Positions 242 to 4,443 of a DNA stretch of 4,443 nucleotides are shown piece by piece. The stretch lies in the IMG/VR virus record IMGVR_UViG_2675903289_000009; one strand, given 5' to 3'. Source of the stretch: a virus (taxonomy: Duplodnaviria; Heunggongvirae; Uroviricota; Caudoviricetes). How positions within the stretch are numbered: the first letter of the stretch is position 1; the number at the start of each line of letters is the position of its first letter. The notes under the pieces were generated by a model. The model ran no database searches. It worked only from the letters and a program-made list of their open reading frames with translations, and was not told the origin of the DNA. Position numbers and translations under genes: made by a program.

Positions 242-409
242 ATGACCACTATTACCAAAGAACGTATTGAATTGTTCATTAAAAACCCGCTTGAAAACGG
301 GCTTACCCGTGGTGAACAAATGGAACTGGCACGGATTGCGCTGGCATCGCTGGAAGCAGAGCCGGTTGTGTTCTGGTTTGAAAAATATCAAGAAGGGGCT
401 ACGGCATGA
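242..409 (+). CDS. small hypothetical protein, 55 aa ([55 protein letters not shown])
   Basis: ATG at 242 preceded by AAGGAG (230-235) with a 6-nt spacer; 55 codons, then TGA at 407-409 overlapping the ATG of the next gene (ATGA at 406-409). Absent from the supplied ORF track, presumably because of length. Translated by hand. Confidence 0.55.
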
Positions 410-957
410 CGACTTTTACCAGAGAGCAGTTAATAGCTCACGCAGAGGAGACTATTGAAGCACAGAGACTGTGCATACCGGGCACAATCGACCATGACAT
501 CATCCGCACATATAAGATGGATATTGCTGTTCTGGAAATCGCNNNNNNNNNNNNNNNNNNNNNNNNNNNNNNNNNNNNNNNNNNNNNNNNNNNNNNNNNN
601 NNNNNNNNNNNNNNNNNNNNNNNNNNNNNNNNNNNNNNNNNNNNNNNNNNNNNNNNNNNNNNNNNNNNNNNNNNNNNNNNNNNNNNNNNNNNNNNNNNNN
701 NNNNNNNNNNNNNNNNNNNNNNNNNNNNNNNNNNNNNNNNNNNNNNNNNNNNNNNNNNNNNNNNNNNNNNNNNNNNNNNNNNNNNNNNNNNNNNNNNNNN
801 NNNNNNNNNNNNNNNNNNNNNNNNNNNNNNNNNNNNNNNNNNNNNNNNNNNNNNNNNNNNNNNNNNNNNNNNNNNNNNNNNNNNNNNNNNNNNNNNNNNN
901 NNNNNNATTCGATTTGCCGCTGGGGATAAAAACGGTTTGCGGGAAAAGGAGAGTTAA
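406..957 (+). CDS. hypothetical protein, interrupted by a 364-nt N run; 3' end unresolved
   Basis: ATG at 406 in ATGA overlap with the upstream stop; a protein-like N-terminus ([45 protein letters not shown]) runs into the N run at 543. The N run is not a multiple of 3, so the frame after it is unknown; the end is 957 if the frame is kept, 961 in the other open frame. Confidence 0.4.
543..906. other. run of 364 N (unresolved or masked sequence)
   Basis: Literal n characters in the sequence; length not a multiple of 3. Confidence 1.
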
Positions 958-964: not shown

Positions 965-1020
965 TGCAGCGGGTGCTTGAGGCTATCTGTCTCAGGCATG
1001 AACACCAAAAGGCAGATAGA

Positions 1021-1092
1021 GAAAAGCCCCAGTTAACATTACGCGTCCGGCAAGACGCTTAACATTAATCTGAGGCTCAATCTATGAACGGC
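1021..1092 (-). ncRNA. sok: predicted Sok-like antisense RNA (approximate ends)
   Basis: Predicted start ~7 nt downstream of the - strand -10, near 1092. The transcript would be antisense to the leader ORF GAGG (1072-1075) and ATG (1084). It contains a 9-bp hairpin with one mismatch (UUAAGCGUC-UUGCCG-GACGCGUAA, complement of ~1039-1062). The 3' end is placed at a short U run (complement of 1021-1026); it is not a canonical terminator, so the end is uncertain. Confidence 0.45.
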
Positions 1093-1296
1093 AAATCTAG
1101 GTTAGCCTCTTACGTGCCGAAAGGCAAGGAGAAGCAGGCTATGAAGCAGCAAAAGGCGATGTTAATCGCCCTGATCGTCATCTGTTTAACCGTCATAGTG
1201 ACGGCACTGGTAACGAGGAAAGACCTCTGCGAGGTACGAATTCGAACCGGCCAGACGGAGGTCGCTGTCTTCACAGCTTACGAACCTGAGGAGTAA
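1084..1296 (+). CDS. mok: mok-like leader ORF, here in frame with hok (70-codon ORF giving an N-terminally extended Hok)
   Basis: ATG at 1084 with GAGG at 1072-1075; 19 codons upstream of and in frame with the hok ATG. The alternative frame that would match R1 mok has TAG at 1098-1100 and no start codon. Confidence 0.45.
   Translation: MNGKSRLASYVPKGKEKQAMKQQKAMLIALIVICLTVIVTALVTRKDLCEVRIRTGQTEVAVFTAYEPEE
1099..1127 (-). promoter_or_regulatory. candidate sok antisense promoter on the - strand (-35 TTGCCT = complement of 1122-1127; 17-nt spacer; -10 TAACCT = complement of 1099-1104)
   Basis: Hexamers read from the reverse complement. Their position between the leader ORF start and the hok start, and their spacing, match the R1 sok promoter arrangement as I recall it (TTGCGC - 17 nt - TATCCT). 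Confidence 0.5.
1141..1296 (+). CDS. hok: Hok/Gef family membrane toxin, 51 aa (MKQQKAMLIALIVICLTVIVTALVTRKDLCEVRIRTGQTEVAVFTAYEPEE)
   Basis: ATG at 1141 with AGGAG at 1127-1131. Single hydrophobic transmembrane segment followed by the conserved ...TRKxLCExR...EVAxFxAYE... periplasmic tail typical of Hok (compare R1 Hok [52 protein letters not shown]). Closely resembles HokD/RelF as I recall it. Confidence 0.9.
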   Translation: MKQQKAMLIALIVICLTVIVTALVTRKDLCEVRIRTGQTEVAVFTAYEPEE

Positions 1297-1873: not shown

Positions 1874-2990
1874 GTGCGGGTATTACTTCGACCTGTTCTG
1901 GTACCGGAACTCGGTCTGGTTATCGTTAAGCCAGGCCGTGAATCAATGTCAGCATTCCATAACGGCAGAATACTGGTGGAGCCGGAACCAAAAAGCATGC
2001 GTAATCTGNNNNNNNNNNNNNNNNNNNNNNNNNNNNNNNNNNNNNNNNNNNNNNNNNNNNNNNNNNNNNNCCGGGGTCGTTCCTGCCGCTCGCCAGCCGC
2101 TGGTGGAAGACAAAACATTGCTGCCGTTTTTCAGTAACGCACGGGTGATTCGTGCTGCTGGTGGTGCTGGTGCATTGTCTGACTGGCTGTTGCGCCATAT
2201 TAAATCCTGCCAGTGGCCACACGGCGATTATCATCACAGCGAAACCGTCATTCACCGTTATGGTACCGGCGCAATGGTGTTGTGCTGGCACTGCGACAAC
2301 CAGCTGCGTGACCAGACATCCGAATCACTCGAGCAACTTGCTCATCAAAACCTGTCAGCATGGATGATTGACGTCATCGGTCACGCAATAAGCGGTACGC
2401 AGGAGCGTGAATTATCTCTGGCTGAATTATCCTGGTGGGCGGTCCGCAATCAGGTGGCGGACGCGCTACCGGAAGCGGTATTACGTCGTTCGCTGGGGTT
2501 GCGTGCGGAAAAAATTCGCTCTGTGTACAGTGAAAGCGACATCATACCGGGAGAGCAGACAGCCACCAGCATACTGAAGCAGCGCACAAAAAATATTGCG
2601 TTACTGCCTCACGTCCACCAGCAACAGAACCCACCACAGGAAAAGACGGTGGTCAGCATTGCCGTTGATCCGGAGTCACCGGCTCAGTATCTCCAGCGCC
2701 AGAAATCACAACGGGAAGAGATGCCTGTATACACGCGCTGGGTAAAAACGCAGAAATGCATGACGTGTGGCAATCAGGCAGATGATCCGCATCACATCAT
2801 TGGTCATGGACTGGGAGGGATGGGAACAAAGGCTGATGATTTGTTTGTTATTCCGTTATGCCGTAAATGCCGTAACGAACTACATGCCGGAGTAAAAGAT
2901 TTTGAAGAGAAACACGGCAGTCAGCTGTTGTTGCTGATTCGTTTTTTAATGCACGCGAGAAATTCGGGTGTTCTGAAGTGGAAAGCATAA
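1874..2990 (+). CDS. DUF968 family protein (YdfU-like) with a C-terminal CxxC...HH...CxxC-N-x2-H HNH-like motif; N-terminus and frame across the N run uncertain
   Basis: After the N run there is a long ORF in one frame ending at TAA 2988-2990, with a C-terminus (CMTCGNQADDPHHIIGHG...LCRKCRNELH) that I recognise as typical of prophage DUF968 proteins. Before the N run the protein-like frame is the GTG-1874 frame (VRVLLRPVLVPELGLVIVKPGRE...), not the ATG-1872 frame used by the ORF track. GGAGG at 1865-1869. Confidence 0.75.
2009..2070. other. run of 62 N (unresolved or masked sequence) inside the DUF968 gene
   Basis: Literal n characters; length not a multiple of 3. Confidence 1.
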
Positions 2991-3371
2991 ATGACCGAGC
3001 GCATAGAATTTGTTTTACCTTACCCGCCGACGGTGAACACTTACTGGCGTCGTCGTGGCAGCACATATTTTGTATCAAAAGCCGGGGAGCGTTATCGCCG
3101 GGCAGTGGCGCTTATTGTTCGCCAGCAGCGGCTGAAATTAAGCCTGTCCGGAAGGTTGGCAATAAAAATTATTGCAGAACCACCGGATAAGCGCCGCCGT
3201 GACCTGGACAATATTCTGAAAGCGCCGCTGGATGCGCTGACGCATGCGGGGTTGCTAATGGACGATGAGCAGTTTGATGAAATCAATATCGTTCGTGCTC
3301 AGCCAGTATCTGGTGGACGTCTGGGGGTGAAGATTTACCCCATAATGCATGAAGAGCAGGTCAAAAAATGA
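2991..3371 (+). CDS. rusA: RusA-family Holliday junction resolvase (crossover junction endodeoxyribonuclease), 126 aa
   Basis: ATG at 2991 directly abuts the DUF968 stop. The protein shares the RusA hallmarks with E. coli RusA as I recall it: LPxPPxxNxY near the N-terminus, PDxRRRDLDN acidic catalytic motif, ALTxAGxxxDDxQ and GGRL near the C-terminus. Confidence 0.92.
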   Translation: MTERIEFVLPYPPTVNTYWRRRGSTYFVSKAGERYRRAVALIVRQQRLKLSLSGRLAIKIIAEPPDKRRRDLDNILKAPLDALTHAGLLMDDEQFDEINIVRAQPVSGGRLGVKIYPIMHEEQVKK

Positions 3372-3637
3372 AACTGGAAGATTTACCGAAATACTACTCC
3401 CCAAAATCCCCTTGCCTGACCGATGCATCGGCCTCAACGTCAAAAGATGCGCTGAGTATCACTGATGTGATGGCCGCGCAGGGCATGACACAGAATCGGG
3501 CTGAGATGGGGGTTTCTGCGTTCCTTGGGAAAATGGGCATTAGTATGAATGACAGAGAGCGGGCAACAGAATTGCTGACAGAATATGCACTCAGTCGGTG
3601 TGATCGCGTGGCGGCGTTAAGAAAACTCCCGGCAGAA
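3368..3637 (+). CDS. late-gene antiterminator Q (phage 21/933W/Qin type), N-terminal 90 codons up to the N run
   Basis: ATG at 3368 in ATGA overlap with the rusA stop. The N-terminus (MKLEDLPKYYSPKSP...TDVMAAQGM...FLGKMGISMND...) matches the conserved N-terminus of this Q family as I recall it (MRLESVAKFHSPKSP...TDVMAA...). It sits in the Q position downstream of rusA. Confidence 0.75.
3511..3637 (+). repeat. direct repeat copy 1 (127 nt of Q coding sequence)
   Basis: Aligns without indels to 3767-3893; I count 12 mismatches in 127 positions. Confidence 0.9.
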
Positions 3638-3766
3638 NNNNNNNNNNNNNNNNNNNNNNNNNNNNNNNNNNNNNNNNNNNNNNNNNNNNNNNNNNNNNNN
3701 NNNNNNNNNNNNNNNNNNNNNNNNNNNNNNNNNNNNNNNNNNNNNNNNNNNNNNNNNNNNNNNNNN
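3638..3766. other. run of 129 N (unresolved or masked sequence) inside the Q gene
   Basis: Literal n characters. Confidence 1.
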
Positions 3767-3893
3767 GTTTTCTGCGTTCCTGGGGAAAATGGGCATCAGT
3801 ATGAATGACAGGGCGCGGGCAACAGAATTACTGGCAGATTATGCACTCAGTCGGTGCGATCGTGTGGCGGCGTTGAGAAAACTTCCGGCAGAA
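3767..3893 (+). repeat. direct repeat copy 2 (127 nt of Q coding sequence), offset 256 nt from copy 1
   Basis: See copy 1. An offset of 256 is not a multiple of 3, so the two copies lie in different reading frames. Confidence 0.9.
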
Positions 3894-4443
3894 ATAAAAC
3901 CGGTAGTGATGCGCATTATGGCTTCGTACGCTTTTGAGGATTATGCCCGCAGCGCAGCGAGTAAAAAGCAGTGCCCTTGTTGCTATGGGGAAAAATTTAT
4001 TGAAAGCGTAGTTTTTACAAACAAGGTCCAGTATCCGGATGGTAAGCCGCCGGTATGGGCAAAGTGTACGAAAGGTGTGTATCCGTCTTACTGGGAAGAA
4101 TGGAAAAAAGTCAGGGAGGTGGTAAAAGTTGCCTGTCCGGAGTGTGGCGGAAAGGGTGAGGTTTCCACCGCCTGTAAGGATTGCCGTGGGCGTGGTGTCG
4201 CCATTCATCGTGAAGAGTCGGTAAAACGTGGTATGCCTGTTATCAGAGACTGCCAGCGTTGTGGTGGTCGTGGCTATGAAAGACTACCATCAACGGAGGC
4301 ATTTAATGCTATATGCGAGGTGACAAACCAGATAACACGCGCGTCATGGGAAAAAACAGTTAAGAAATTCTATGATGCGCTGGTGACTCGGTTTGATATT
4401 GAAGAAGCATGGGCTGAGCGGCAGTTAAAAAAGGTAACTAGGT
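3768..4443 (+). CDS. antiterminator Q, C-terminal portion with four CxxCxG(xG) zinc-finger repeats; continues past the window end; frame is +1 relative to the N-terminal portion
   Basis: Frame open from 3768 to the window end and not in the ORF track. It restarts at FSAFLGKMGISMND..., repeating the pre-gap segment, then continues ...MASYAFEDYARSAAS...CPCCYGEK...CPECGGKG...CKDCRGRG...CQRCGGRG...SWEKTVKKFYDALV...KKVTR, which parallels 933W-type Q proteins as I recall them. Confidence 0.8.

Follow-up and report, generated by a model that had tools for sequence, protein, structure and literature searches.

The window, that is, the whole stretch of 4,443 nt of DNA that was analysed, contains a gene for a Q antiterminator that appears to be broken by an out-of-frame duplication on the two sides of a run of Ns. 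This duplication is very probably an artefact of scaffolding, in which the ends of two contigs carrying two natural alleles of Q would have been placed next to each other across an arbitrary number of Ns. The real locus most likely harbors one intact Q gene of 822 nt, with a single copy of the segment that now appears twice.

The window includes three N runs, at 543-906 (364 nt), 2009-2070 (62 nt) and 3638-3766 (129 nt). The third of these sits exactly between the two copies of the repeated segment, which are the following:

3511-3637, plus strand: copy 1, allele A, corresponding to Q nt 144-270; these 127 nt close the contig to the left of the N run (left contig)
3767-3893, plus strand: copy 2, allele B, likewise corresponding to Q nt 144-270; these 127 nt open the contig to the right of the N run (right contig)

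A repeat search returned a single direct-repeat family in the window, with members at 3513-3637 and 3769-3893, 91% identity and a spacing of 256 nt. The diverged direct repeat at 3511-3637 and 3767-3893, with copies 256 nt apart, which the original prediction had described, was thus recovered independently. By our own count, 115 of the 127 positions are identical in the two copies, a match far beyond chance, and 12 positions differ. Eight of the differences are synonymous and four are non-synonymous (V/F, E/A, T/A and E/D); the recount agrees with the numbers given in the prediction, and the peptides quoted there are identical. The repeat search detected neither another repeat of comparable length in the window nor repeats flanking the other two N runs (543-906 and 2009-2070). 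The list of open reading frames also bears out the statement that Q, if read through the Ns, terminates at 3806-3808, which is the stop of the listed ORF 3368..3808. The exact 127-mer of copy 1 was found in 10 IMG/VR contigs, which are relatives of the window and not the window itself, and in none of the genome contigs. The junction of the two copies with its 129 Ns matched no genome contig either, and a 199-nt pattern from the left contig matched no viral contig. Strain KKo009 has a Q gene with 99.85% identity to the Q region of the right contig.

In complete genomes, the intact Q gene is 822 nt long (273 aa), is annotated as 'antitermination protein', and lies directly 3' of rusA. The two flanks of the third N run map onto these genes as follows:

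3368-3637, plus strand: 3' end of the left contig, Q nt 1-270, 99.3% identical to the annotated 822-nt genes, A-type at the 12 diagnostic sites of nt 145-261
3767-4443, plus strand: right contig, Q nt 144-820, allele B, ending 2 nt before the end of the 822-nt gene

The left and right flanks hence overlap by 127 nt at homologous Q coordinates, and no sequence is missing between them. If 3638-3893 is deleted, so that the left flank (Q nt 1-270) is followed by the right flank from nt 271 onward, an open gene of 273 codons results, with A-type sequence at nt 145-261 and B-type sequence from nt 281. The original prediction had proposed that both flanks be aligned to intact Q genes and the copies counted, and this comparison gave one copy per gene in the relatives. 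Across 57 fetched loci, the segment occurs 60 times, and no two occurrences lie within 1 kb of each other. Of the 60 related Q genes, 44 can be read to 273 aa, with the segment present once in each; of the remainder, 6 stop at 275-284 codons, and 10 are cut by contig ends or by single-N joins. The intact single-copy homologues include 10 loci that encode a RusA identical to that of the window. Gap-free sequence joining copy 1 to copy 2 was not found in the 57 fetched loci, and in the window, the copies are joined only by Ns. A search of 2.9 million viral contigs with a degenerate pattern that covered both alleles (segment end, 100-130 nt, segment start) likewise yielded no contiguous instance.

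The protein encoded by the merged gene (273 aa) matches the Pfam profile PF03589, 'Antitermination protein Q', with 184 bits (cutoff 26.7; E 5.2e-55). It also aligns with lambda Q (7UBM/7UBN) over residues 1-113 and 116-207 (E 1.7e-41) and with the lambda Q structure 4MO1 (E 4.4e-28). The identification of the gene as a Q antiterminator, which had been made from the letters alone, thus holds (PF03589, E 5e-55; lambda Q 7UBM, E 1.7e-41). These profile and structure-sequence matches are what the reconstructed protein shares with lambda-type Q (PF03589; 7UBM/7UBN, 4MO1), together with the place of its gene right behind rusA, which is also where lambdoid phages and prophages have it. The protein is a homologue of the lambda-type antiterminators and is predicted to act as one. 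In contrast to lambda Q, the reconstructed protein contains a Cys-rich insertion of 68 residues with CxxC motifs between the lambda-aligned parts (aa 114-181, about 3963-4166 of the window). This insertion, which overlaps a sub-threshold match to the DnaJ CXXCXGXG profile (aa 171-218; 28.4 bits vs a cutoff of 32.7), is probably an extra zinc-binding module. The form of Q that bears the insertion is common in E. coli and Klebsiella phages. About 2,480 of the 5,426 complete E. coli genomes contain this Q, and a single genome can have as many as 4 copies.

The genes around Q are those expected for such a locus. The gene order in the window is hok/sok, DUF968, rusA, Q, and the proteins encoded upstream of Q were assigned by profile matches: RusA to PF05866, the DUF968 protein to PF06147, and Hok to PF01848. 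The hok/sok type I toxin-antitoxin locus occupies 971-1296 and includes:

971-1146, plus strand: sok, Rfam RF01794, 112 bits
1084-1296: ORF of the Hok/Gef family, PF01848, E 3e-23; its counterpart in relatives is annotated hokD

Together, DUF968, rusA, Q and hok/sok make up the late-regulatory module that E. coli lambdoid prophages usually have. On the 3' side of Q, relatives have tRNAs and holin and lysozyme genes. The position of Q, after DUF968 and rusA in the window and ahead of the lysis genes in relatives, fits this lambdoid module, in which the nin-region genes and rusA precede Q and the late promoter and lysis genes follow it. The window itself ends at 4443, which corresponds to nt 820 of the 822 nt of Q and lies within the stop codon; the qut site, the promoter and the terminator would be located beyond this end.

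A comparison of the variable columns in the related loci showed that the Q alleles A and B differ at 4 sites in nt 45-75 and at 31 sites in nt 145-403, whereas nt 76-144 and nt 404-764 are the same in both. Each of the 12 positions at which the two copies disagree is an A/B difference located at nt 145-261, with copy 1 being A and copy 2 being B. The claim that the two copies diverged as functional coding sequence is thereby substantiated: the 12 differences are polymorphisms between intact single-copy genes, and the excess of synonymous differences is observed because the copies represent two functional alleles, not a decaying duplicate. Two related isolate-derived draft scaffolds in IMG/VR carry both alleles in separate pieces, namely L007, with three Q regions (A, a variant of A, and B), and L045, with separate A and B regions.

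The lengths of the N runs provide further evidence. The true distances were determined from relatives with exact 25-nt flanks for gaps 1 and 2, and by gene alignment for gap 3. In L009, L010 and L012, for example, the sequences to the left and to the right of gaps 1 and 2 match those of the window at 100%. The comparison gave the following values:

543-906, no strand: gap 1, 364 N vs 265 nt in 11 loci with exact flanks; error +99 nt
2009-2070, no strand: gap 2, 62 N vs 4 nt in 13 loci with exact flanks; error +58 nt
3638-3766, no strand: gap 3, 129 N vs -127 nt (an overlap) by gene alignment; error +256 nt

The lengths of all three gaps are arbitrary, which fits imprecise estimates of scaffold gaps and not a mask laid over collinear sequence. 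The length of gap 3 is uninformative because the flanks really overlap by 127 nt. From the comparison with relatives, we infer that the Ns originated in scaffolding. Gap 2 lies within the DUF968 gene (window 1874-2990), the N-terminus of which is in the frame of 1874 and the remainder in the frame of 1872. The apparent +1 frameshift of DUF968 is false and belongs to the same class of artefact as that in Q. As a side observation, the ORF 406..957, which is listed across gap 1, is not real; the homologous gene in L003 ends within the missing stretch.

The original prediction had further stated that Q is interrupted. This conclusion does not stand, since a reading frame across Ns of arbitrary length is meaningless, and all 44 genes that can be read to 273 codons carry the segment only once. 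Nor is the proposal of a prophage that lacks an intact Q and is defective supported, as it rests on the same frame through an arbitrary N run. The proposal that two Q paralogues had been joined, by scaffolding or by recombination, is retained in part: the evidence favors scaffolding and speaks against recombination, because the lengths of all three N runs are wrong and the contig ends are located at or near the points where the alleles diverge.

The positions of these ends are informative in themselves. The right contig begins at Q nt 144, one nucleotide before the first A/B difference (nt 145), and it ends, together with the window, at nt 820, a mosaic boundary where related prophages diverge downstream of Q. 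This suggests that the 677 nt of the right contig are a repeat that was collapsed between two branch points. The left contig stops 9 nt beyond the last A/B difference of the block at nt 145-261, that is, not at the exact point of divergence. Other draft contigs also end inside Q, at nt 206, 230, 233, 279, 280, 437, 555, 634 and 746. In L007 (N at 1952 and 4268), Q fragments that end at nt 233 and 746 are joined to further Q pieces via single Ns, and in L045 (N at 2232 and 6087), a fragment that ends at nt 206 is joined in the same manner to further Q-bearing pieces. Given the similar break-and-join patterns in these two scaffolds, the phenomenon recurs in other drafts of related strains.

The left contig is of mixed type. 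Up to 3337, it does not differ from the L010-type prophage; seven L047/B-type bases follow (3338, 3349, 3355, 3412, 3413, 3421 and 3442), and the stretch 3512-3628 is A-type once more. Among complete E. coli genomes, none matched the window at 100% over 3100-3637. The type switch looks like phase switching between paralogous prophages in the assembly, which would make the contig a chimeric consensus of two prophages, or, less probably, like a natural mosaic.

The following course of events would account for the observations. The window would be a short scaffold from a draft assembly of the short-read type, made from an Escherichia-like genome or sample, and the source would contain at least two lambdoid prophages that share related late-regulator regions (DUF968, rusA, Q). 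The assembly would have broken inside Q because Q is a multi-copy mosaic repeat. One contig (2071-3637) would follow one path into Q and halt at nt 270, with allele A over nt 145-261. The other (3767-4443) would start at the A/B divergence (nt 144/145) with allele B and continue through shared sequence to nt 820. The scaffolder would then have linked the two contigs and written 129 Ns despite a homologous overlap of 127 nt. The overlap, the identities of the alleles, the wrong gap lengths and the lack of this arrangement in other sequences are observed; how the assembler behaved, and which allele truly follows the left contig, are points that we infer.

Several numerical coincidences were considered in this context. 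The overlap is exactly 127 nt, and 127 nt plus 129 N gives 256 nt. In SPAdes, 127 is the usual maximum for k. An overlap that is simply a de Bruijn k-mer was nevertheless rejected, since the copies differ at 12 sites. The end of the left contig at nt 270 could not be derived from the known alleles with a graph of k = 127. An explanation of the 129 Ns as the missing A-branch (nt 271-403, 133 nt) was likewise discarded: although the lengths nearly agree, the geometry is not right for it.

Two reconstructions of the gene can be compared with existing sequences. In the merged gene, allele A switches to allele B between nt 261 and 281, and the same switch is found in the intact Q of the complete genome SCU-176, which is 99.1% identical to the merged gene, and in L037, which is 99.05% identical to it over 634 nt. 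SCU-176 and L037 differ from the merged gene at nt 45-75 and at nt 145. In the database, no sequence matched the merged gene (left 1-270 plus right 271-820) at 100%, the best match being the one at 99.1%. A sequence of 123 nt that spans the junction of the A/B hybrid occurs exactly in 31 IMG/VR contigs. The alternative reconstruction is a plain B allele: the 10 loci with identical RusA are identical to the window over 3030-3511 and continue with the full B allele. Under either reconstruction, A/B hybrid or plain B, Q is predicted to be intact.

A variant of the scaffolding artefact, which we consider rather unlikely, is that the sample was mixed (metagenome, MAG or contaminated culture) and the alleles came from two different strains, and not from two prophages in one genome. 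Such an origin would be compatible with the presence of three gaps in so short a scaffold (4443 nt), as is typical of fragmented assemblies, with the apparent phase switching in the left contig, and with the metagenome contig L057, which has allele B and a rusA 3' end that matches the window over a 199-nt pattern, and which ends inside Q. However, the isolate-derived scaffolds L007 and L045 already carry A and B together, and with up to 4 Q copies per complete E. coli genome, a single genome is sufficient. The window itself does not discriminate between mixed strains and two prophages, as either gives the same picture. A deliberate hard mask over real contiguous sequence would mean that the coordinates are true and that the gene contains extra sequence. 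Some sequence collections do carry masked stretches as N, and the irregular lengths of the N runs (364, 62 and 129) do not correspond to a fixed placeholder value; irregular lengths are, however, equally expected from gap sizes estimated from read pairs. A mask would have to hide length anomalies at all three stretches in comparison with every relative that has the exact flanks (+99, +58 and +256 nt), and at two of the three it would put a conserved gene, DUF968 or Q, out of frame. Since all three N runs disagree with these relatives, we rejected masking of collinear sequence and regard it as extremely improbable.

A real duplication appears to us very unlikely as well. In that case, recombination between two prophage Q genes would have produced an out-of-frame tandem of 256 nt (nt 144-399 present twice) and a Q pseudogene, and the Ns would hide 129 real bases. 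The spacing (127 + 129 = 256) is compatible with a tandem unit that continues under the Ns, and inter-prophage recombination is common in these genomes, as is visible in the mosaic structure of the Q alleles. Homologous prophage sequences have also been reported to recombine (PMC10925052). Yet this scenario requires a non-homologous join, from allele A nt 399 to allele B nt 144, at exactly the place that the Ns cover; neither of the other N runs is a collinear placeholder (62 vs 4 nt and 364 vs 265 nt); and the arrangement is absent from 60 related Q occurrences and from 2.9 million viral contigs. Moreover, the right copy starts at the point of A/B divergence, which is expected of a branch in an assembly graph and not of a recombination junction. 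If the duplication were true, it would be the scar of a recombination event by which one prophage lost late-gene antitermination, and that prophage would be one more defective lambdoid prophage. Defective lambdoid prophages are common in E. coli.

The joining of two contig ends by a scaffolder, which we favor, has described counterparts. Between the copies of a false duplication there is typically an assembly gap (PMC9516828), and a gap between the members of a duplicated pair is a primary hallmark of the 'heterotype' false duplication (Ko et al. 2022, Genome Biol 23:205, PMC9516828). As in that class, two diverged versions are kept adjacent across a scaffold gap, with false gene structures and frameshifts as the outcome; there, however, the versions are the haplotypes of diploid vertebrates, whereas here they would be prophage paralogues or strain alleles. 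Four of the features by which false duplications are recognized are present in the window, namely an N run between the copies, flanks that overlap on a single-copy reference, allele-specific differences, and an unreliable gap length. Short reads have been described as limited at the homologous prophage regions of STEC O157:H7 (PMC10925052). The fragmentation of short-read assemblies of E. coli and STEC at lambdoid modules is similar to the present case in that several near-identical Q regions exist per genome and contigs break inside them. That description is a general one, and the Q-internal overlap across Ns is one specific instance.

When duplicated sequence is found to the left and right of a gap, this is a classic indication that contig ends overlap or were joined wrongly, and reading frames across N runs in draft scaffolds are uninterpretable and call for caution. 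Automated scans could otherwise report the false Q 'pseudogene' and the DUF968 frameshift as prophage inactivation.
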